Under the pieces are notes generated by a model, which was not told the DNA's origin, made no database searches, and worked only from the letters and a program-made list of their open reading frames with translations. A stretch of 39,917 bases of DNA from Escherichia phage vB_EcoA_ASO2B, in the sequence record MZ726794.1; one strand, given 5' to 3'. A program made the translations under genes and the position numbers. Positions 1 to 36,882 of the stretch are shown here, piece by piece. The first letter of the stretch is position 1. Each line of letters begins with the position of its first letter.

Positions 1-100
1 AGGTCAACGATAGGTCTAGGCTATGGCTTATGGAAGGACGATAGGTAGAGGCTATAGGTCTTCTTTGAGTCTCTATCTGTATAGTGTTATAGTATAACAT
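1..100. repeat. Distal part of predicted direct terminal repeat (wraps from window end); boundaries approximate
   Basis: Bases ~60-100 (tctttgagtctctatctgtatagtg...) parallel the 3' end of the T7 terminal repeat just before the short-repeat array. Start of repeat inferred at ~39790. By analogy only; no second copy present in window. Confidence 0.35.
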
Positions 101-103
101 TAC

Positions 104-217
104 GTCCTACACCTACAGTCTCACTAACCTACAGTCTCACTAACCTACAGTCTCACTAACCTACAGTCTCAACCATAAGACACCAACACCTACAGTCATA
201 GACCTACAGTTACTAGA
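104..217. repeat. Left short-repeat array (SRL-like), ~7 tandem units with core CCTACAG
   Basis: Seen directly: acctacagtctcacta repeated at 111-126, 127-142, 143-158, degenerate copies to ~217. Analogous to T7 CCTAAAG arrays adjacent to the terminal repeat (concatemer processing/packaging region). Confidence 0.7.
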
Positions 218-321
218 CACAGAGCTATAGACTTAAGGTCCAAGACATGTTAGTCAAAGACTATATCCTCTTACACCATGAGGCCGACGATAGCTTAATC
301 AATATTATTTCAAATTACCTA

Positions 322-350
322 TTGACTATAGGTCAAGGATATGGCCTAAT
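322..350 (+). promoter_or_regulatory. Candidate host sigma70 early promoter (A1-like)
   Basis: TTGACT (322-327), 17-bp spacer, CCTAAT (345-350); located where T7 has its strong early host promoters. -10 element is weak; inference. Confidence 0.3.
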
Positions 351-461
351 AGCTTCCGTCAACACGACACGGCAACAACCGGATAGTGAAGACGCCGGTC
401 CGGTCCGGTTAAGTAGTCAGCCTGTAAGACATACGAACAACAGGCAACCGACAGAAAGTAG

Positions 462-491
462 TTGACAAGAAGTATATAATTAAAGTATTAT
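462..491 (+). promoter_or_regulatory. Candidate host sigma70 early promoter (A2/A3-like)
   Basis: TTGACA (462-467), 18-bp spacer, TATTAT (486-491); followed by gcagtaagac, resembling the T7 A2 region. Inference. Confidence 0.35.
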
Positions 492-733
492 GAATCTAAA
501 GCAGTAAGACGCCACCACGGAATTGGTAGCAGGTACACTCTAACCGCCTCACTAAGAGTAAATTGAGGGGCCGGGCTTCACCGAGTGAAGAAGGTCTGAT
601 TGTCGGATACTAAGTTACTACCTATAGCGCGGTAACAGAGAACGTTGGGAACTACGCAATACCCCGAGTTGGACAGCCAACAATGCTCTTTAACAATCTG
701 GATAAACTCTTAATGTACGCCGATAGCGACTAA

Positions 734-784
734 CTACAGGGCCTTTGAGTCTACATCTGAAGGCCCTGACTGATAGTCACTAAC
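734..784 (+). promoter_or_regulatory. RNase III-type processing hairpin (R0.3-like) preceding first early gene
   Basis: agggcctt...aaggccct inverted repeat followed by ctgactgatagtcactaac, a motif recurring before successive early genes; preceded by gctctttaacaatctgg, as found upstream of T7 R0.3. Confidence 0.45.
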
Positions 785-791
785 TTAACGG

Positions 792-1046
792 ATGAACACT
801 ATGAAACACTTAAGCACAATCACTAATCACAATGAAGTATTCGTGAACACTAAAGGTTATGCGTGGATTCAGCTTAAAGAGATGACAGGAGCGCGTCACC
901 GTGTGGTAGTGCGCAAGGTCTCAAGCAAGCCGTTCAGCAACTACAGCATAGATACTGTGCGCATAGACAACGAGACCTACCTGATAGATTCGCAGATAAC
1001 CGTGAGTCCTACAGCGGGCGTCTCAGCTCCTTATTTCGCTAACTGA
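792..1046 (+). CDS. Hypothetical early protein (84 aa)
   Basis: ORF exactly fills the gap between two R-site hairpins in the early region; weak SD; no recognisable family. Confidence 0.45.
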   Translation: MNTMKHLSTITNHNEVFVNTKGYAWIQLKEMTGARHRVVVRKVSSKPFSNYSIDTVRIDNETYLIDSQITVSPTAGVSAPYFAN

Positions 1047-1066
1047 GAGTGATTAACTACAGGTCG

Positions 1067-1101
1067 TTAGACTTATAGCGGCCTGACTGATAGTCACTAA
1101 C
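1067..1101 (+). promoter_or_regulatory. RNase III-type processing hairpin upstream of ocr
   Basis: ctacaggtcgttagacttatagcggcctgactgatagtcactaac; shares the gcctgactgatagtcactaac arm with the site at 734-784. Confidence 0.45.
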
Positions 1102-1119
1102 AACTGAGAGGATATAACT

Positions 1120-1650
1120 ATGGAACGTAACGCTAACGCATACTATGAGCTGCTGGCTGCAACCGTTGAGCTGTTCAATGAGCGTATTCAGTGCGACGAA
1201 ATAGCTGAAGGCGATGACTACAGTGATGCGCTGCATGAGGTCGTAGACGGTAATGTTCCGCATTATTACCACGAGATTTACACGGTGATGGCTGCTGATG
1301 GTATTGACAATGAGTTCGAAGACTCTGGGCTGATGCCTGAGACCAAGGACGTAACGCGTATACTACAAGCTCGCATCTATGAGGCACTGTATAACGATGT
1401 GTCTAATAGCTCTGAGGTGGTCTGGTTTGAGGCTGAAGAGGAAGACGAAAAGGCTGAAGAGGAAGACGAAAAGGCTGAATATTGGGTAGTTGACACTAGA
1501 ACAGGCGAGATAATTGAGGCAGCTGTATCACTTTGCGAGGCTATTGCATGTGCAAAAGAACTCTATGAGGAAGGTTTTCACATGCAAGTCGAAGACATCA
1601 ACGATAACGTAGTGTTCGATCCTGAGGCTGCTGAGGAGGACTGCGAGTGA
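1120..1650 (+). CDS. ocr: Ocr-like DNA-mimic anti-restriction protein (T7 gene 0.3 homolog), 176 aa with extended acidic C-terminus
   Basis: Translation contains [43 protein letters not shown], closely matching the T7 Ocr core ([43 protein letters not shown] as I recall it); strong SD gagagga; highly acidic. Confidence 0.85.
   Translation: [176 protein letters not shown]
1432..1479 (+). repeat. Perfect 21-bp tandem duplication (gctgaagaggaagacgaaaag x2 plus partial third) inside ocr
   Basis: Seen directly; encodes [16 protein letters not shown] in the acidic tail of Ocr. Confidence 0.85.
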
Positions 1651-1817
1651 TGGTAACTTATGGTCTCTGCCAGCACCACGTCACCAACGCCCGGCTTATG
1701 GTCAAGACCGGGAGATTAAACCACGAGGAGTCTATGCGTCTCTTGAAAGTGGTCTACAGGAGACGCAAGCGCATACACGACAGCCTACACGCTGAGGACA
1801 AGAAATATTTACCATAG
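1650..1817 (+). CDS. Possible small basic early protein (55 aa), start overlapping ocr stop (TGATG)
   Basis: ATG at 1650 overlaps the ocr TGA (1648-1650); ORF MVTYGLCQHHVTNARLMVKTGRLNHEESMRLLKVVYRRRKRIHDSLHAEDKKYLP ends at TAG 1815-1817; below the ORF-track size cutoff; occupies the gap before the next R-site. Confidence 0.25.
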   Translation: MVTYGLCQHHVTNARLMVKTGRLNHEESMRLLKVVYRRRKRIHDSLHAEDKKYLP

Positions 1818-1856
1818 CCTGACCATAACGCTGACAGGTGGGTACTGAGTGTTAAA

Positions 1857-1902
1857 CTACAGGTCATCTACATGGTGGCCTGAGTGATTACCACTTGATA
1901 AC
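1857..1902 (+). promoter_or_regulatory. RNase III-type processing hairpin
   Basis: ctacaggtcatctacatggtggcctgagtgattaccacttgataac; shares caggtcat...ggtggcct with the late R-sites. Confidence 0.45.
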
Positions 1903-1919
1903 TACAGAAGGAAAGAATA

Positions 1920-2267
1920 ATGACTGCTAAAACTCGCAATGTATTCTCGGTAGCATTTAAACTCAACGTTGTTAACTACTACACCTCTCTGCCTGAGGGA
2001 GTTATGGATAGGGTGACTGAAACCGCCCAAAAGTTCGGGGTGGGAACGAGTTCGGTGAAGCGCTGGTTTACTCAGTATATCCGTGGTGAGCTTGCCATGG
2101 AAAACGCTATTGCGGTGAGTCGCCGGCCTTCTAAGGTAATAACAGGTGATATTTACCACCTTGCAGGAAAGGACTTCAAGTCCAAAGAGGAGGCGATACG
2201 CTATGCGGTTGAGCTTGCTGGTGGGCTGACTGTAAGCAAGATGACCACTGTATCGGTGGAAGTGTAA
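1920..2267 (+). CDS. Hypothetical early protein (115 aa) with probable N-terminal helix-turn-helix
   Basis: SD aagga 8 nt upstream; N-terminal segment VVNYYTSLPEGVMDRVTETAQKFGVGTSSVKRWFTQY resembles the HTH of IS3-family transposase N-termini (pattern recognition only). Confidence 0.5.
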   Translation: MTAKTRNVFSVAFKLNVVNYYTSLPEGVMDRVTETAQKFGVGTSSVKRWFTQYIRGELAMENAIAVSRRPSKVITGDIYHLAGKDFKSKEEAIRYAVELAGGLTVSKMTTVSVEV

Positions 2268-2277
2268 CCGTGTAAGG

Positions 2278-2345
2278 CCTAGCTGAGTGATAGACGAGAG
2301 GTCATCGACTGATAGGTGGCCTCAAAGATTACCACTTAAATTGAT
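2278..2345 (+). promoter_or_regulatory. RNase III-type processing hairpin
   Basis: aggcctagctgagtgatagacgagaggtcatcgactgataggtggcctcaaagattaccacttaaattgatag; paralog of the site at 1857-1902. Confidence 0.4.
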
Positions 2346-2442
2346 AGAGGTTAACTATGAGTGTTGGACATTGGGTATGCTTATCTCCGGTCATCTTTCT
2401 GATAGCTTGGGGGATATACGACTGTATTAAACGGAAATCACT

Positions 2443-2640
2443 ATGAGTCTTGCACTATTGATAGCCATAGGCTATGGACTTATCGCCTACGTGCTGGTGA
2501 GAGACATCAATAAAGCGCATAGAGTATACAAATTAAACTATGTACGTCTGGGCCGCTGGACTGTACGTCAACCTAACGGACGATTCATGCGCAACTTAGC
2601 GAACGTCTGGGATATAGCAACTATTGGGAGCAAACTGTAA
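2443..2640 (+). CDS. Hypothetical small membrane protein (65 aa)
   Basis: N-terminal hydrophobic helix LALLIAIGYGLIAYVLV followed by a basic tail; stop overlaps next start (TAATG). Confidence 0.4.
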   Translation: MSLALLIAIGYGLIAYVLVRDINKAHRVYKLNYVRLGRWTVRQPNGRFMRNLANVWDIATIGSKL

Positions 2641-2900
2641 TGAAAACCGTATACATTAACAAGCCATCTATCCGTAGCCGTATAGAGCAAATACAGCGTG
2701 ACGAGTTCTTACATCGCCGCATGAAGGCTGAGGGCCATGAATCCGAACTGATGTGTCTGGCGTATGGTGGACGACCAATCACTGACGATGGTAAACTTTT
2801 AGTCTCAGGCTGGAAGGCGATGGACCAACGGTCAACCATCAAGCACACGACCAATGGTGACTTCAGCCATCTCCACGCTAACCAACTGATATGCAAGTGA
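2640..2900 (+). CDS. Hypothetical early protein (86 aa)
   Basis: ATG overlaps upstream stop (translational coupling); occupies the slot immediately upstream of gene 1 where T7 has the 0.7 kinase, but is far too small to be a kinase. Confidence 0.45.
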   Translation: MKTVYINKPSIRSRIEQIQRDEFLHRRMKAEGHESELMCLAYGGRPITDDGKLLVSGWKAMDQRSTIKHTTNGDFSHLHANQLICK

Positions 2901-2905
2901 TTATG

Positions 2906-2926
2906 ACTTAACTATCACTTTAGGAC
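2906..2926 (+). promoter_or_regulatory. Phage RNAP promoter variant (ttaactatcactTtagga) upstream of gene 1
   Basis: Matches the 11-member promoter family except A->T in the TATA element. Confidence 0.5.
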
Positions 2927-2997
2927 TAAAGGTCTAAGACTACAAGTGAAAGACCAAAGAGACTCTAAGTGAAAGACTAATAACAAGGACTTTAAGT

Positions 2998-5679
2998 ATG
3001 AGCGTCATCTCTATTGATAAACACGACTTCTCTGATGTGTCGAACGCCATTGAGCCGTTTAACCTGCTGGCTGACCACTACGGGCAGGACCTTGCAGTCA
3101 AGCAGCTTCAGCTTGAGCATGAGGCATACACTGAAGGCGAGCGACGTTTCATCAAAAACCTTGAGCGACAGACTGAGCGCGGGGAACTGGCAGACAATCA
3201 GGTCGCCAAGCCTTTGATGCAGACTCTGGTTCCTAAGATTGCGCAAGCCGTCAGGGAGTGGTATGAAGGTCCAGACGGGAAGCTGTCAACCTCTCGTCCT
3301 AGCGTAGCGTTCACCATGTTAAGCACCGAAGAGAAGGCCGTCAAGGACCGCTCTCTGCGTATCCCTTGCGAGTCTGCTGCGGTCATCATACTGAAGGTCA
3401 TACTCTCCAAGCTGGTAAAGCCTGAAGGGATACCGATTACACCGATGGCCTCCGCGATAGGTCGCACACTTGAGGACGAAATCCGCTTCGGTCGCATCCG
3501 TGACAAAGAGAAAGAGCACTTCAAGAAGGCGATAGCTGATAACCTGAATAAGCGGGCCGGGGCGTCCTACAAGAAAGCCTACATGCAAGCGGTCGAGACA
3601 TCCATGCTGGAGCAAGGCCAACTGGAAGATGCGTGGGGAACTTGGAGTCCTACAGAGGCTGTCCACGTGGGCATCAAGATGCTTGAGATTGTCATCCAGT
3701 CAACACAACTGGTCGAGCTTAAGCGGTACGGTGCTGGCAATGCAGCGGCTGACGTAGAGATGGTCCACCTGTCAGACTTCTGGGTAAAGAAGATGGCACA
3801 ACGAGGATTCAGCCTTGCGGGTATAGCTCCAGTCTACCAGCCTTGCGTCGTTCCACCTAAGCCGTGGACTGGTGTCGTAGGTGGTGGGTACTGGGCCAAA
3901 GGTCGCAGACCGCTACCCCTGATTCGCTTAGGGTCTAAATCAGCGGTGGCACGTTATGAAGACGTATACATGCCTGAAGTCTATGACGCTGTGAATATCA
4001 TCCAGAATACACCTTGGAAAGTGAACAAGAAGGTACTGGACGTGGTGAACATGGTCGAGAAGTTGAACAAAACGCCTATTGATGACATCCCTCAGATGGA
4101 GCCACTGAAGCCTGAAGACTATGCGGGTGAGACTGAGGAGGAACTCAAGGCATGGAAGAAGGCTGCTGCTGGTATCTATCGCCGCGAGAAGGCCCGACAG
4201 TCGCGAAGATTGTCACTGAGCTTTATCGTTAACCAAGCGAACAAGTTCTCTCAGTTCAAGGCCATCTGGTTCCCGTACAACATGGACTGGCGTGGGCGCG
4301 TCTACGCTGTGCCGATGTTCAACCCTCAAGGTAACGACATGCAGAAAGGTCTCCTTACTCTGGCAGTCGGTAAGCCTATTGGTGCTGACGGTTTCAAATG
4401 GCTGAAGGTCCATGGTGCAAACTGCGCGGGTGTTGATAAAGTCACCTTCGAGGAGCGCATCAAGTGGGTGGAAGACAACCACGACAACATTATGGCTGCT
4501 GCTAAGGCACCTATGGATAGCATTGAGTGGTGGGGCAAGTTAGACTCTCCGTTCTGCTTCCTTGCGTTCTGCTTCGAGTATGCTGGTGTAATGCATCACG
4601 GATTGTCTTACTCCTGCTCATTACCGATAGCGTTCGATGGGTCATGCTCAGGGATTCAGCACTTTAGCGCGATGCTTCGTGATCACATAGGTGGACATGC
4701 AGTAAACCTAACGCCTTCCGGTAAGGTCCAAGACATCTACCGAATCGTGTCCGACCGCATTGAGGAAGAGCTTAAAGTCCTGCTGGTTAACGGCACAGAC
4801 AACGAGATGGTAACTCACGAGGACAAGAAAACTGGTGAGATTACCGAACGCCTCAAGCTGGGGACACGAGAGCTGGCCCGGCAGTGGCTGACTTACGGCA
4901 TGTCACGCAAGGTCACTAAGCGTTCAGTAATGACTCTGGCCTATGGGTCGAAAGAGTACGGCTTCGCAGACCAAGTTTATGAGGACATCGTGATGCCGGC
5001 GATTGACTCAGGGTCTGGCGCTATGTTCACCGAACCAAGCCAAGCGTCCCGCTTCATGGCTAAGATGATTTGGGAAGCTGTGAGCGTGACCGTAGTTGCT
5101 GCGGTTGACGCAATGAAGTGGCTTCAGGGTGCTGCCAAGCTGCTGGCTGCTGAAGTGAAGGACAAGAAGACTGGAGAAATCCTGAAGCCTTGCCTTCCGG
5201 TACACTGGGTAACACCTGATGGTTTCCCGGTCTGGCAGGAATACCGCAAGAAGGATACCACCCGTCTGAATCTGATGTTCTTAGGGTCATTCAACCTTCA
5301 ACCTACGGTCAACAAAGGCATGAAGAAAGAGTTGGACAAGCAAAAGCAGGAGTCAGGCATTAGCCCGAACTTCGTCCACTCACAAGATGGTAGCCACCTA
5401 CGCAAGACTGTAGTCCACACGCACCGCAAGTATGGCGTGATGTCCTTCGCAGTGATTCACGATAGCTTCGGGACCATCCCTGCTGACGCTGAGTATCTGT
5501 TCCGTGGTGTCCGTGAGACGATGGTCGAGACCTACCGCGATAACGATGTGCTGCTTGACTTCTACGAGCAGTTTGAATACCAGCTTCACGAGAGCCAGCG
5601 CGACAAGTTACCTGAGCTTCCGAAGAAAGGTAAACTGAATATCGAAGACATTCTGTCTTCAGACTTTGCATTCGCTTAA
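2998..5679 (+). CDS. Single-subunit DNA-dependent RNA polymerase (T7 gene 1 homolog), 893 aa
   Basis: Size and position as T7 RNAP (883 aa); C-terminus ...DFAFA as in T7; conserved segments e.g. RRPLPLIRLGSKS, FDGSCSGIQHFSAMLRD, HDSFGT. Confidence 0.97.
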   Translation: MSVISIDKHDFSDVSNAIEPFNLLADHYGQDLAVKQLQLEHEAYTEGERRFIKNLERQTERGELADNQVAKPLMQTLVPKIAQAVREWYEGPDGKLSTSRPSVAFTMLSTEEKAVKDRSLRIPCESAAVIILKVILSKLVKPEGIPITPMASAIGRTLEDEIRFGRIRDKEKEHFKKAIADNLNKRAGASYKKAYMQAVETSMLEQGQLEDAWGTWSPTEAVHVGIKMLEIVIQSTQLVELKRYGAGNAAADVEMVHLSDFWVKKMAQRGFSLAGIAPVYQPCVVPPKPWTGVVGGGYWAKGRRPLPLIRLGSKSAVARYEDVYMPEVYDAVNIIQNTPWKVNKKVLDVVNMVEKLNKTPIDDIPQMEPLKPEDYAGETEEELKAWKKAAAGIYRREKARQSRRLSLSFIVNQANKFSQFKAIWFPYNMDWRGRVYAVPMFNPQGNDMQKGLLTLAVGKPIGADGFKWLKVHGANCAGVDKVTFEERIKWVEDNHDNIMAAAKAPMDSIEWWGKLDSPFCFLAFCFEYAGVMHHGLSYSCSLPIAFDGSCSGIQHFSAMLRDHIGGHAVNLTPSGKVQDIYRIVSDRIEEELKVLLVNGTDNEMVTHEDKKTGEITERLKLGTRELARQWLTYGMSRKVTKRSVMTLAYGSKEYGFADQVYEDIVMPAIDSGSGAMFTEPSQASRFMAKMIWEAVSVTVVAAVDAMKWLQGAAKLLAAEVKDKKTGEILKPCLPVHWVTPDGFPVWQEYRKKDTTRLNLMFLGSFNLQPTVNKGMKKELDKQKQESGISPNFVHSQDGSHLRKTVVHTHRKYGVMSFAVIHDSFGTIPADAEYLFRGVRETMVETYRDNDVLLDFYEQFEYQLHESQRDKLPELPKKGKLNIEDILSSDFAFA

Positions 5680-5694
5680 TAACAGGAGAAGTAT

Positions 5695-5925
5695 ATGTCA
5701 ATGAAACTTGTAGCACACAACAAAGCATTCAACGATGGGTCGGGACGTTGTCATGTAGAGCTGACTTATAAGGATTTAGTCATTCTCAGAGACAGATTAC
5801 AAGCTGGTGTTACTGGGTGGATTCAACCTAACGAGTACAACCTTATCGCTTCGATTGACGAAGTGCTTAACGCGTGGAGGGAAGACGAGCGCACTCAGTA
5901 TCCATCATTCCCTACAATTAGATAA
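5695..5925 (+). CDS. Hypothetical protein (76 aa) downstream of RNAP
   Basis: SD aggaga 7 nt upstream of ATG; no family recognised. Confidence 0.5.
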   Translation: MSMKLVAHNKAFNDGSGRCHVELTYKDLVILRDRLQAGVTGWIQPNEYNLIASIDEVLNAWREDERTQYPSFPTIR

Positions 5926-5935
5926 GGAGCTAGTT

Positions 5936-6151
5936 ATGAAATTTGCACACAAGCATACTGGCGTTAATGGTGGGACTCAAATCGTGACCGTAACAGAACA
6001 CAACGGCGCGGGTCTGGTGAAGACCACGGTCATCCCGACCAAGATGTCCAAGCAGCTTAACATCCCGTTCAAGACTCTTGTAGATCTGGTCGAGTCCAGC
6101 CACGAGAAGTACCTGAAGGACGCAGTGTCCAAGCTGGAGCAGGCCAAATGA
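5936..6151 (+). CDS. Hypothetical protein (71 aa)
   Basis: Internal ATG at 5936 of track ORF 5807..6151, preceded by SD aaggag (5924-5929); the longer track ORF would overlap the upstream gene. Confidence 0.5.
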   Translation: MKFAHKHTGVNGGTQIVTVTEHNGAGLVKTTVIPTKMSKQLNIPFKTLVDLVESSHEKYLKDAVSKLEQAK

Positions 6152-6225
6152 CAGACCTACAGTCACTGGCCTTGTGGCTAGGAGCACTCGCAGTATTCAC
6201 TTTAATCCAACGCAGAAGAGGTTAA

Positions 6226-6248
6226 CCCTAAACTATCACTATAGGATT
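6226..6248 (+). promoter_or_regulatory. Phage RNAP promoter (ctaaactatcactatagga)
   Basis: Consensus core; position equivalent to T7 phi1.1. Confidence 0.75.
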
Positions 6249-6292
6249 AGACTCAAGGTCATGACTCAAAGTCGTGGCCTTCATGATTAACC
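6248..6292 (+). promoter_or_regulatory. RNase III-type processing site (R1.1-like)
   Basis: tagactcaaggtcatgactcaaagtcgtggccttcatgattaac; same motif at 13468 and 36784; resembles T7 R0.3 (actcaagg...gtgccctttatgat). Confidence 0.55.
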
Positions 6293-6321
6293 CTAACGTA
6301 AACTACTGGAGATTTAACCAC

Positions 6322-6501
6322 ATGTATCAGAACACTATCAACTTTGAGCGCATCCGTGAACGTCAGCAGACTGAAGACTACATCCCGAAGGGACGCAAGC
6401 TGAACAAGATCAAGCGTGGTGGTGGTGTCAAAGGCGCTTTCCGTAATGCTGAAGGTAAAGACTCTCTGGTCAACCAAGAGAAATACTTCGTAGGAGCATA
6501 A
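6322..6501 (+). CDS. gp1.1-like small basic protein (59 aa)
   Basis: Internal ATG 6322 with SD ggag; contains KGRKLNKIKR like T7 gp1.1 (KGRKLNKTKR); the upstream part of track ORF 6274..6501 lies within the R-site. Confidence 0.6.
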   Translation: MYQNTINFERIRERQQTEDYIPKGRKLNKIKRGGGVKGAFRNAEGKDSLVNQEKYFVGA

Positions 6502-6505
6502 CCAA

Positions 6506-6769
6506 ATGGGCCGACTTTATAGTGGCATCCTCAACGCTTTCAGAGCAGCGTGTAACAGGCTCTACCAGTTAGACTTCGCTGTTATATCTCAGGAGTTTCA
6601 AGACCATGTGTCACGCCAAGAGTGCATGAGACTCAGGGTGGAGGACCGAGCTGGTAACATCTTCGCGCTTGAGACCTTCACACACTACGATGAAGACGTG
6701 CTGTATAATACTGCAACCAACTACCTCAACGGTCTCGCTGACCATATCGACACATGGAGCAAAGCATAA
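6506..6769 (+). CDS. gp1.2-like protein (host dGTPase inhibitor homolog), 87 aa
   Basis: Begins MGRLYSG..., with ...HYDEDVLYN, matching T7 gp1.2 (MGRLYSGNL..., HHDEDVLFN). Confidence 0.85.
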   Translation: MGRLYSGILNAFRAACNRLYQLDFAVISQEFQDHVSRQECMRLRVEDRAGNIFALETFTHYDEDVLYNTATNYLNGLADHIDTWSKA

Positions 6770-7845
6770 TGACAACTATTAAAACCAACCCGCACCGCGC
6801 TGTAGATTACTCTGAGTCTGGCGTTAAGAAGGCACTGGAAGCAGCCGGGTCTCTGGAAGCTGAAGTGAAGTACGACGGTGTGCGCCTGAATCTCCCGGTC
6901 CTGCGTGAAGGTGAGACCTACTGGCTGAGTCGTGAGTCTAAACCTCTTCCAGCCTTGGAGTGGATGAACTCTGAGTTAGGGAATGCGTGGACCCAAGCTG
7001 ACTGGCGCTGGTTCCTACGTCAAGCTGGCTACGAAGGTGTGGGCATGATGATTGATGGCGAGGTCATGGTCAAAGGTGTAGACTTCAACACCTCCTCAGG
7101 TCTCATCCGCACGAAGTGGCTGAAGCCTAACAACGAGGAGTTCGCTGAATGCTATCCGTGGCGCGGTAAGAAGGTCCCGTTCTGGGCCGCCCGGTCAAGA
7201 CTTCAGGTTGTGGTATACGGTGTCGTAGACATGACAACCATTGCTGACCCGAAAGCCGAAGGTCCTATCCATAGCGTCACACGCCTGAAGGCCGAAGCTA
7301 TCGTCCCTCTCCTCCAGAAATACTTCCCGGAAATCGACTGGGTTCTGTCTGAGTCACACACGGTCTATGACCTTGAGTCGCTCAACTCCCTGTACGAAGA
7401 GAAGCGTCTGGAAGGACATGAGGGTCTGGTAGTCAAAGACCCGCTTGGTAAGTGGAAGCGTGGCAAGAAGTCAGGCATGTGGAAAATGAAGCCTGAGGAT
7501 ACCATCGACGGGACCGTATGCGGACTCGTGTGGGGGACTCCGGGTAAGGCTAACGAAGGTAAGGTCATCGGCTTCGAGGTTCTGCTGGAGGACGGAATGG
7601 TAGTTAATGCTTGTGGTCTGACTGAAGAACAGAAGGACGAGTTCACAGCTAACGTCGCTGAATCTAGTGGTTATACCTTGGCTGGTGGCCCTGTGGTTAT
7701 TCAGGATGGGACCGAGAAGATCAACCCATACGAAGGCTGGCAGTGCGAAGTCCTCTTCATGGAGCGGTTCCCAGATGGTTCCCTTCGTCACCCTAGCTTC
7801 AAGTGCTGGCGCGGAACGGAAGATAACCCAACTGTTAAGAGTTAA
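6754..7845 (+). CDS. ATP-dependent DNA ligase (T7 gene 1.3 homolog), 363 aa
   Basis: Adenylation motif KYDGVR (EVKYDGVRLN); size as T7 ligase (359 aa); followed by the early terminator. Confidence 0.92.
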   Translation: MEQSIMTTIKTNPHRAVDYSESGVKKALEAAGSLEAEVKYDGVRLNLPVLREGETYWLSRESKPLPALEWMNSELGNAWTQADWRWFLRQAGYEGVGMMIDGEVMVKGVDFNTSSGLIRTKWLKPNNEEFAECYPWRGKKVPFWAARSRLQVVVYGVVDMTTIADPKAEGPIHSVTRLKAEAIVPLLQKYFPEIDWVLSESHTVYDLESLNSLYEEKRLEGHEGLVVKDPLGKWKRGKKSGMWKMKPEDTIDGTVCGLVWGTPGKANEGKVIGFEVLLEDGMVVNACGLTEEQKDEFTANVAESSGYTLAGGPVVIQDGTEKINPYEGWQCEVLFMERFPDGSLRHPSFKCWRGTEDNPTVKS

Positions 7846-7855
7846 CTAAATTTCA

Positions 7856-7895
7856 ACCCAGTGGTCTTAGCGGACTGCTGGGTTTCTTTGCTTTG
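7856..7895 (+). terminator. Early rho-independent terminator (TE-like)
   Basis: Stem AACCCAGTGGTC / GACTGCTGGGTT (7856-7885, with G-U pairs), loop ttagcg, then tctttgctttg. Confidence 0.7.
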
Positions 7896-7929
7896 TGCTA
7901 GCAAGCTATAGTCTTGGCCACCAGCTAGA

Positions 7930-7952
7930 CCCTAAGCTATCACTATAGGACA
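7930..7952 (+). promoter_or_regulatory. Phage RNAP promoter variant (ctaagctatcactatagga)
   Basis: Core atcactatagg present; upstream aaGctat variant. Confidence 0.65.
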
Positions 7953-7977
7953 ACCATCAACAACCTAAGGAGACTCT

Positions 7978-8232
7978 ATGTCTAAGAACTTAATGTTCAA
8001 CCGTTATACCGATACCTTCCACCTGTCCAACAACCCGTTTGCTTGCATTAAGCGTAACGAGAAGCTGGGCTACTTCGGGAAGGCCGTTAAGCTGTCACCT
8101 ACAGTCTTCGCTCTGATTACTCCGGGCAAAGCTGAAGAGGCTCGCCAGAAGCGCGAGACCAGCGTACCTGTGGTCTACACTAAGTGGCCTCGTGTTCGCC
8201 TGTTCGTTGAGTTCGTGAAGGAGGTGTTCTGA
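7978..8232 (+). CDS. Hypothetical protein (84 aa), gene 1.6 position
   Basis: SD aaggag upstream; stop overlaps next start (TGATG). Confidence 0.5.
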   Translation: MSKNLMFNRYTDTFHLSNNPFACIKRNEKLGYFGKAVKLSPTVFALITPGKAEEARQKRETSVPVVYTKWPRVRLFVEFVKEVF

Positions 8233-13300: not shown

Positions 13301-13464
13301 TGTTACGAAAACTTAAAGCTCGCTACCATCAGTTCATGTACAAATGGTGGAGCGATGAAGCAACCTGCCTGTCGAACATTCTTGGAGACCAGCGGTTCGA
13401 CTCTGAGGCATGGAAGAAAGCTAACCGGAAGTTTATGTATCACTTCTTGCGTACAGACTTCTAG
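13300..13464 (+). CDS. Hypothetical small protein (54 aa)
   Basis: ATG 13300 with SD ggaggg 11 nt upstream; internal start of track ORF 13282..13464. Confidence 0.4.
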
Positions 13465-13467
13465 GTC

Positions 13468-13512
13468 TAGACTCAAGGTCATTCACAGCGAGTGGCCTTT
13501 ATGATTAGACTA
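13468..13512 (+). promoter_or_regulatory. RNase III-type processing site (R4.7-like)
   Basis: tagactcaaggtcattcacagcgagtggcctttatgattagac; same motif as 6248 and 36784. Confidence 0.55.
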
Positions 13513-13527
13513 AACGGAGGATTAACC

Positions 13528-36521: not shown

Positions 36522-36781
36522 CGCAGATGGACTTAGAGAAGTTCCTCTTAATGCTAGATACTGAACGTGCTCGACTCATGCTGCAAGACCTGCGGGATGA
36601 CACTAAGCGTTCACCTCAGCTCTACAACGCCATTGAGAAGCTACTGGCTCGTCACAACTTTGTGTTAAGCAAGGTGTCTGTTGACGAGAAGACGCTGGCT
36701 GATATGGAGGCCCTGAACGCAGAGTACGATAAGGTGCTCTCCGCTACGGAAGATAATGACACCGGGTATGGTGTTCAATAA
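36518..36781 (+). CDS. Terminase small subunit (T7 gene 18 homolog)
   Basis: FLLMLDTERARLMLQDLRDDTKRSPQLYNAIEKLLARHNF resembles T7 gp18; size 87 vs 89 aa. Confidence 0.8.
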   Translation: MTQMDLEKFLLMLDTERARLMLQDLRDDTKRSPQLYNAIEKLLARHNFVLSKVSVDEKTLADMEALNAEYDKVLSATEDNDTGYGVQ

Positions 36782-36783
36782 GT

Positions 36784-36832
36784 GTTAGACTCAAGGTCAT
36801 TACTGTATGTAGTGGCCTTTATGGTTAACACT
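36784..36832 (+). promoter_or_regulatory. RNase III-type processing site (R18.5-like)
   Basis: tagactcaaggtcattactgtatgtagtggcctttatggttaac; third copy of the 6248/13468 motif. Confidence 0.55.
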
Positions 36833-36882
36833 AACTAGTGGAGGAGACTCTACGTGCAATCTGATAAACCGGGAGGGCAACT

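Follow-up and report, generated by a model that had tools for sequence, protein, structure and literature searches.

What does a T7-like phage carry in its early region when it lacks the gene for the 359-aa gp0.7 protein kinase, which T7 places between ocr and gene 1? The question is raised by the left part of Escherichia phage vB_EcoA_ASO2B (sequence record MZ726794.1), whose 39,917 nucleotides, analysed as a whole, are called the window below. An initial annotation of positions 792-2900, made from the letters alone, proposed that a 0.7-type kinase is lacking and that five or six small open reading frames (ORFs) separated by processing hairpins are found in its stead.

Over positions 700-3000 the window is 99.6% identical, at full length, to Escherichia phage Mt1B1_P3 (Kayfunavirus), and K1F and many other Kayfunaviruses are ~90-94% identical to the same stretch. 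Positions 460 to 3000 very likely make up the early (class I) operon of a Kayfunavirus of the K1F type, in essence that of Mt1B1_P3, and would be expressed and processed as set out below. The Mt1B1_P3 record (MT496969) gives the order hypothetical protein, Ocr, three further hypothetical proteins and RNA polymerase, and the K1F record names the same gene series, gp0.1, 0.2, 0.3, 0.35, 0.36, 0.37, 0.38 and gp1. The layout first described from the letters is therefore the standard annotated Kayfunavirus layout. Going by the K1F annotation, an early region of small genes with no kinase is already known and is not new.

Absence of the kinase and the coding status of the small frames

Between ocr (1120-1650) and gene 1 (2998-5679), ORFs reach 115 aa at most, against the 359 aa of T7 gp0.7, and no ORF of kinase-domain length (~240 aa or more) lies between the two genes. 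The small ORFs are too short for a kinase, as had been supposed. When T7 gp0.7 was compared by tblastn with the whole 39.9-kb window, the best E was 2.1; T7 Ocr, searched alongside, recovered its homologue at 8e-28. No kinase domain was detected by Pfam in any small ORF. Where a kinase fold is concerned, the model of the helix-turn-helix (HTH) protein encoded at 1920-2267 is a helical bundle, the model of the 86-aa protein is too poor to use and the other small proteins are too short for a kinase domain. The full annotation of Mt1B1_P3 also contains no protein kinase, and on these grounds the absence of a 0.7-type kinase can be accepted. That annotation includes the gp2 inhibitor of host RNA polymerase, gp5.7 and the gp1.2 dGTPase inhibitor. 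Host-transcription shut-off without gp0.7 would fall to gp2 and gp5.7.

The absence is shared by close relatives. Across the early regions of 15 Kayfunavirus loci, neither T7 nor T3 gp0.7 has a match, and as a positive control the same queries recover the kinase of phage Pisces at 1e-31 to 2e-36. Among phage records, 908 contain a gp0.7 homologue, and most of these belong to other genera. One apparent exception, a 'Phage protein kinase' at 1121-1624 of LM33_P1 (LT594300), was rejected as a mislabel that sits on the ocr gene; it could mislead surveys of kinases. Gene 0.7 is dispensable in T7, and the 2005 K1F genome paper of Scholl and Merril is said to have noted that the gene is missing.

The small frames themselves were judged by a coding test in which differences from related genomes (7-14 per ORF) were counted by codon position. 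Each line below ends with the counts at positions 1/2/3 and the verdict.

792-1046, plus strand: 84-aa gene, lineage-specific, homologue of K1F gp0.2 (81 aa from the ATG at 801; phrog_10124, 7.6e-41); 18/16/30, coding, moderate signal
1120-1650, plus strand: ocr (gp0.3), DNA-mimic anti-restriction protein of 176 aa with an acidic-repeat C-terminal extension (Pfam ocr, 58% identity to T7 Ocr); 78/83/209, coding
1650-1817, plus strand: 55-aa gene of the K1F gp0.35 family, divergent T7 gp0.4-type, predicted FtsZ inhibitor (profile similarity, overlap with ocr); 104/54/103, coding, moderate signal
1920-2267, plus strand: 115-aa accessory gene with an N-terminal IS3-OrfA/Brinker-type HTH and a nearly invariant 60-aa C-terminal domain; 11/8/37, coding
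2287-2430: 47-aa ORF with a GTG start; 61/50/31, noncoding
2357-2446, plus strand: gene for a 29-aa hydrophobic peptide (MSVGHWVCLSPVIFLIAWGIYDCIKRKSL), positional analogue of T7 gene 0.5 (coding pattern, conserved length, hydropathy); 25/18/41, coding
2443-2640, plus strand: 65-aa gene with an N-terminal membrane anchor, homologue of K1F gp0.37 (phrog_2385, T3 gp0.6 homology); 31/34/72, coding
2640-2900, plus strand: 86-aa gene, homologue of K1F gp0.38, lineage-specific (phrog_7066); 47/24/118, coding

All of the ORFs named at the outset (792-1046, 1650-1817, 1920-2267, 2443-2640 and 2640-2900) are present. The expected number of five or six comes out as six small genes, with two amendments: the 29-aa gene at 2357-2446 had been overlooked, and the ORF at 2287-2430 is noncoding. 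The latter was rejected as a gene because it starts inside one of the hairpins (hairpin D, below) and has a reversed codon-position pattern, its match to phrog_36394 at 1.3e-22 notwithstanding; that PHROG looks like a collection of miscalled ORFs. The 29-aa ORF is the other frame of the stretch that the 47-aa ORF covers. A second frame, the 'gp0.1' ORF at 247-465 (72 aa, phrog_30192), is annotated in K1F and LM33_P1. It differs at 45/59/49 codon positions across 14 genomes, with 19 synonymous against 95 non-synonymous codon changes and no coding signature. Lying in the promoter region, it is probably not a gene. The Mt1B1_P3 record has no CDS for 2357-2446 or for 2443-2640 despite the conservation of both. 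Stop and start codons overlap at ocr/1650, 2357/2443 and 2443/2640.

These two noncoding frames, both with PHROG families of their own, are what gives some substance to the idea that the small ORFs are chance frames within a long untranslated leader of gene 1. As an account of the accepted genes the idea is extremely improbable. A third-position excess and a synonymous bias are found in all six accepted ORFs; length, start codon and ribosome-binding site are conserved in the comparison made for the 29-aa ORF; and there is homology to T7 gp0.4 and T3 gp0.6.

A candidate FtsZ inhibitor and its small neighbours

The initial annotation held that the small genes have no characterised T7 counterparts. 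This has to be given up: 1650-1817 resembles T7 gp0.4, 2443-2640 resembles T3 gp0.6 and 2357-2446 is an analogue of T7 gp0.5.

The 55-aa gene is probably a K1F-type FtsZ inhibitor, a divergent form of gp0.4. The assignment is made on profile similarity, the overlap with ocr, the residues at the FtsZ interface and the block of the Z-ring by K1F. The protein matches phrog_5058 at 9e-25, and T7 gp0.4 itself matches the same family at 9e-5. An hhalign comparison of the family profile with T7 gp0.4 gives a probability of 88% (E = 2.9e-6, 38% identity over 40 columns). T7 gp0.4 is likewise a protein of ~50 aa encoded in the same place, and its gene overlaps ocr in an identical manner, by 1 nt (TGATG). 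Relatives of the 55-aa protein all lie on ~40-kb T7-like contigs, and every match carries the precomputed Pfam label PF26807, used here by its number and not by a family name.

The toxicity of T7 gp0.4 is lost with V15A, V22A, W28A, M32A, L35A or Y39A, and its residues A12, T14, L16, S19 and R23 touch the CapRel(Ebc) sensor (PMC13423816, 2026). At the six FtsZ positions the hhalign alignment places V, V, H, M, L and Y in the 55-aa protein, five of six being identical. The interface residues V15, V22, M32, L35 and Y39 are thus kept as V11, V18, M29, L32 and Y36, and W28 is replaced by His (H25). In the family, the columns of H25, M29, L32 and Y36 vary little or not at all, which does not hold for V11 and V18. 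At the five CapRel(Ebc) positions the protein has Q, H, T, R and K, none of them identical. Since no contact residue is kept there, the 55-aa protein would probably not trigger that defence.

As with T7, infection by K1F prevents the Z-ring from forming (PMC9372555); a term search of that paper brought up no K1F gene. The 55-aa protein would most likely bind FtsZ and block cell division, which makes its gene a candidate for a known phenotype, the Z-ring block by K1F-type phages.

The next resident genes include two whose products would be small membrane proteins, the counterparts of T7 gp0.5 and T3 gp0.6. In 9 of 11 genomes the 29-aa ORF has exactly 29 codons, starts with ATG and follows a GGAG or GAGG ribosome-binding site; in most cases its stop codon and the start that follows overlap in an ATGA. 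Its product is hydrophobic with a basic tail and, like T7 gp0.5, comes from the first gene after an RNase III site. In the same place K1F has a 55-aa hydrophobic protein and LM33_P1 one of 34 aa. The 65-aa protein is 43% identical to T3 gp0.6 over 63 aa (E = 4e-10, full length), and the record of phage Pipis draws the same link. The N-terminal hydropathy maximum is 2.49, at residue 5, for the 65-aa protein and 2.54 for T3 gp0.6.

The 86-aa gene is present in every Kayfunavirus examined. Its protein has 125 relatives, all on ~40-kb phage contigs, and belongs to no Pfam family. A profile search of PDB sequences returned noise only. Structure prediction, proposed at the outset as a check on each ORF, yielded a three-helix bundle for the HTH protein and an unusable model (pLDDT 49.6) for the 86-aa protein. 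The idea that the 86-aa family is a remnant of gp0.7 or of T3 gp0.65 was rejected (hhalign probability 0.6% and 0.5%).

One related record complicates comparisons at the 29-aa gene. The vB_Eco_1RS record (PV615263) breaks the gene for RNA polymerase into three CDS (3153-3955) and has a frameshift in the 29-aa ORF, which suggests sequencing or assembly errors and not biology. An 'Acinetobacter phage' record of equal length, PV615262, matches the window equally well.

Proposed hairpin-led units and the slot upstream of hairpin D

Repeat analysis picked up four related intergenic elements in the early region, each of which folds as a hairpin:

720-786, plus strand: hairpin A, upstream of the 84-aa gene; -26.5 kcal/mol, z = -4.0; 55 bits with the covariance model (training copy)
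1043-1103, plus strand: hairpin B, upstream of ocr; -24.2 kcal/mol, z = -3.6; 61 bits (training copy)
1843-1900, plus strand: hairpin C, cassette-borne with the HTH gene; -25.6 kcal/mol, z = -3.6; 65.5 bits (training copy)
2281-2341, plus strand: hairpin D, resident; -20.7 kcal/mol, z = -1.35

The z-scores are taken against shuffled sequences, and T7 R0.3, R0.5 and R1 were folded alongside. Three of the hairpins fold far better than the shuffles and D modestly better. Two stems, lower and upper, on either side of an asymmetric internal loop give them the shape of the three T7 sites, and they fall in the ~50-60 nt size class of RNase III sites in the T7 group. Together with eight annotated T7/T3 RNase III sites they yield an 18-pair consensus in which 11 of the 18 pairs show compensatory changes. 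AGG and G-CCT blocks around the internal loop are invariant across the window, T7 and T3 copies (…ACTNNAGGTC…GGCCTNNNTGAT…). By structure, sequence and position we infer that all four are T7-type RNase III processing sites that the enzyme would cleave.

A covariance model built from these twelve sequences (the four window hairpins and the eight T7/T3 sites) has seven matches in the window, all on the plus strand and between genes. Four are the training copies; the independent sites, also on the plus strand, are at 6238-6299, 13458-13516 and 36776-36837, positions that recall those of T7 R1.1, R3.8 or R4.7, and R18.5. In 14 related genomes outside the training set the model finds 47 intergenic sites, again all on the plus strand. 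An Rfam scan of positions 1-8000 at E <= 1 matched no family. No RNase III-type site precedes gene 1, where the fold has z = -0.68 and the covariance model finds no match. The proposal that hairpins separate the small ORFs stands as far as the four hairpins are concerned, which are real; they part groups of ORFs and not each ORF from the next.

By analogy with T7, host RNA polymerase would start at a strong promoter at 462-491 and read on into gene 1, and RNase III would cleave the early transcript at the four hairpins. The first mRNA segment would carry gp0.2, the second ocr and the 55-aa gene, the third the HTH gene, and the fourth the 29-aa, 65-aa and 86-aa genes with gene 1. From what is known of T7 biology, the products would act in the first minutes of infection.

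The anchors and hairpins were mapped in 15 genomes, then in Pisces and in an SRT7-like phage. Hairpin D, its leader and its ribosome-binding site are almost identical in every genome mapped, and an alignment of 21 hairpins shows D itself to be near-identical in all Kayfunavirus genomes examined. The order after D is the small membrane peptide gene, the T3-0.6-like gene, the 86-aa gene and gene 1. Just upstream of D lies a slot whose content varies:

K1F and ten other loci: empty
The window, locus L008, pO2 and SH3: HTH gene
LM33_P1: Cys-rich 75-aa gene
Pisces: 244-aa gp0.7-type kinase domain

Each cargo is preceded by its own, different hairpin. Hairpin C is identical in L008, which also carries the HTH gene, and unlike the hairpins that lead other types of cargo. 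A parallel is seen with the 84-aa gene upstream of ocr, which is optional in Kayfunavirus: it is found in 8 of 15 genomes, always flanked by two hairpins, and genomes without it retain one hairpin there. From the cargo-specific hairpins and the loss of a hairpin with the 84-aa gene, it appears that accessory genes would come and go as units of RNase III hairpin, ribosome-binding site and ORF, inserting just upstream of a resident hairpin.

Pisces (MK903277) is classified as a Kayfunavirus, and the N-terminus of its RNA polymerase is 92.5% identical to that of the window. Its kinase, encoded at 1844-2578, is a 244-aa domain 33% identical to T7 gp0.7 and does not have the C-terminal shut-off part. 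As with the HTH cassette, the kinase cassette sits between a cargo-specific hairpin and the resident D, with the 29-aa, 65-aa and 86-aa genes and gene 1 downstream; the cargos differ, a kinase domain in one and an HTH protein in the other, with no sequence relation between them. Because Pisces carries a kinase in a slot that is otherwise empty or differently filled, the kinase is optional cargo in Kayfunavirus. Where ocr would be expected, Pisces has a SAMase.

The slot map bears on whether one of the small proteins, the 86-aa or the HTH protein, is a functional stand-in for gp0.7 with another fold, for example in host-transcription shut-off. The 86-aa gene is the last before gene 1, which is the place of 0.7 in T7 and T3; the HTH gene, for its part, lies in the slot where Pisces has its kinase. 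Yet the 86-aa family is unlike gp0.7 and T3 gp0.65 by hhalign, and Pisces has the kinase as well as an 86-aa homologue. In the SRT7-like phage the HTH gene adjoins a full-length gp0.7, and K1F has neither kinase nor HTH gene. With gp0.7 dispensable in T7, no substitute is needed, and a stand-in is very improbable. The suggestion that small genes are found instead of the kinase is thus right as to position, where the HTH gene fills the Pisces kinase slot, and fails as to function: since the SRT7-like phage has both, the HTH gene and the kinase are not functional alternatives.

The HTH that had been noticed in 1920-2267 is borne out by the family. The window protein scores 20.6 bits with BrkDBD (cut-off 23.4) and 14 bits with HTH_Tnp_1 (cut-off 24.1), and a family member (P0025) reaches 27.6 bits with HTH_Tnp_1, above the 24.1 cut-off; 7 of 19 family members match HTH_Tnp_1 at E <= 0.01. 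AlphaFold models the N-terminal 55 residues as a three-helix bundle (pLDDT 80-89), the same DNA-binding-type bundle as in the HTH domains of IS3 OrfA and Brinker. A Foldseek search of the PDB with the model found generic homeodomain and winged-helix structures only (best E 0.46), the family profile against PDB sequences found only Brinker (E = 0.52), and the model against BFVD found only its own family, named 'Transposase'. A literature search for 'SiR5 protein', the source name of one homologue, yielded nothing relevant.

Selection appears to bear chiefly on the other half of the protein. Family members hardly differ over the C-terminal 60 residues, and at the N-terminus their identity falls to ~30%. 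Compared with phage pO2, the C-terminal domain is 82% identical in nucleotides, with 16 synonymous codon changes and 10 non-synonymous ones; the N-terminal domain is 48% identical, with 7 synonymous and 36 non-synonymous changes. These counts argue that the C-terminal conservation reflects selection on the protein and not recent transfer. The same domain is also found fused to a SAMase fragment (Dev2) and to a gp0.35 N-terminus. It is the selected part of the protein, probably serving as an effector or in oligomerisation.

What the HTH gene does can be framed in two ways. The 115-aa protein would be an optional early DNA-binding protein, and a tentative, rather unlikely extension is that it is a new early effector, a host-transcription regulator or a defence inhibitor, that rides hairpin-led cassettes and acts through its C-terminal domain. 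Alternatively, the ORF could be a selfish relic or component of a mobile element, such as an IS3-type transposase N-terminus or part of a homing element, with no role in infection. The best Pfam and NCBIfam similarities are indeed to transposase HTH domains, homologues are named 'Transposase' in UniProt, and the spread is patchy, with 25 of 50,697 phage records, 29 clusters in a large protein collection and 5 IMG/VR contigs. A transposase as such was rejected: unlike IS3 OrfA, the 115-aa protein has no transposase catalytic part, its C-terminal domain is phage-specific and no relatives of it were found among 185,579 bacterial and archaeal species, each represented by one genome. The neighbours are a hairpin and small phage genes, and every homologue lies in the early region of a ~40-kb T7-like genome. 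The gene also comes with an RNase III hairpin and a ribosome-binding site of its own, oriented as the operon is, and its non-HTH C-terminal domain is under strong purifying selection. A mobile-element origin of this kind is improbable.

Several points weigh against the reading of the region as an operon of hairpin-led genes with these assignments. Both the promoter and cleavage by RNase III are assigned by analogy to T7 and T3, and the cassette model draws on ~20 genomes. The 55-aa protein is only distantly related to gp0.4 (38% identical over 40 residues, and with His in place of W28), and no direct search linked the two. The window HTH protein stays below every Pfam threshold; the model of its C-terminal domain, beta-beta-alpha, is of low confidence (AlphaFold pLDDT 37-67), and the similarity of that domain to DUF2188 is sub-threshold (12.9-15.2 bits against a cut-off of 22, E = 0.02-0.13). 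The 84-aa protein has no informative relatives in Pfam or phmmer searches and gave no functional lead, and the 86-aa protein likewise gave none.

Flanking features, significance and comparison with known systems

Upstream of the cargo slot, the Pfam ocr domain is found at 2.4e-30 (105.4 bits against a cut-off of 25). The Ocr protein has 176 aa in the window and 117 aa in T7. Past the Pfam domain (residues 7-99) there is a tandem EEEDEKAE repeat (1428-1480) and then ~55 aa with no match, and some relatives align only to residues 1-103 or 1-110 of the window protein, their C-terminal parts being different or missing. In two IMG/VR Kayfunavirus contigs a 174-aa ORF (phrog_11084; 1310-1834 in L010, 1134-1658 in L012) replaces ocr; it is also found in Citrobacter phages SH4 and SH5. 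Its Gly-rich GKGAFTKCY looked kinase-like, and this candidate was rejected when no gp0.7, Pfam or PDB similarity was found. The best match of the 174-aa protein is a protein of siphovirus Seurat (PMC4925675).

In the 84-aa gene both candidate ATG starts are conserved. An exhaustive phmmer search with its protein returned small phage proteins and scattered matches within SH3_5, Big_7 and LVIVD repeat proteins; these matches are weak and too heterogeneous to interpret.

The transcription signals at the two ends of the operon, and the gene that closes it, are as follows:

462-491, plus strand: sigma-70-type promoter (TTGACA, 18 nt, TATTAT), matching the consensus at 11 of 12 positions, better than any other in 1-3300
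2904-2997, plus strand: invariant gene 1 leader with a putative phage-RNA-polymerase promoter core at 2910-2924 (AACTATCACTTTAGG), from motif count and conservation
2998-5679, plus strand: gene 1, T7-type single-subunit RNA polymerase, end of the block

By analogy with the T7 A promoters, 462-491 is likely the host-RNA-polymerase promoter that drives the early operon. The AACTATCACTWTAGG motif occurs 12 times in the window, always on the plus strand, against 1.5 expected. The gene 1 leader (~97 nt) has 93% invariant columns across 14 genomes and holds three GACTNNAAGNNNAAGAC-like repeats. The position of the promoter core, directly upstream of gene 1 and in an invariant leader, suggests that gene 1 may also be transcribed by its own product. 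At the left end (111-171) a 16-nt unit, ACCTACAGTCTCACTA, is repeated in tandem ~3.5 times, with related ACCTACAG motifs up to ~215; repeats of this kind are typical of T7-like phages.

The lack of a kinase carries little weight as a discovery, since the K1F record is already kinase-less, the window is nearly identical to a deposited genome and gp0.7 is dispensable. What is new is in the detail only: the gp0.4 assignment, the 29-aa gene, the slot shared with Pisces and the selected C-terminal domain of the HTH protein. The analysis corrects annotations, with two genes absent from the Mt1B1_P3 record, one spurious PHROG-backed ORF and the LM33_P1 kinase mislabel. The slot map also provides a short list of accessory early genes for host-range and anti-defence tests in therapeutic K1F-like phages.

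The closest known systems are K1F and the other Kayfunaviruses, in which 72-100% of the region aligns at 90-99.6% identity. They share with the window the gene order, the absence of 0.7, the resident hairpins and the invariant gene 1 leader. Unlike K1F, the window has the 115-aa HTH cassette with its extra hairpin, and the place of the 55-aa gp0.36 of K1F is taken by the gene for the 29-aa peptide.

The class I regions of T7 and T3 run R0.3-0.3-0.4-R0.5-0.5-0.6-0.7-R1-1. Common to these and the window are an operon under a host promoter that closes with gene 1, a gp0.4-type gene overlapping ocr, RNase III hairpins of one sequence and structure class, and a small membrane peptide after a hairpin; a homologue of T3 gp0.6 is also present in the window. 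In T7 and T3 ocr comes first, whereas the window has an extra gene upstream of it, as well as the additional HTH and 86-aa genes. The window lacks the 0.7 kinase and, at gene 1, has a putative phage promoter core and no RNase III site where T7 and T3 have an E. coli (C) promoter and the RNase III site R1.

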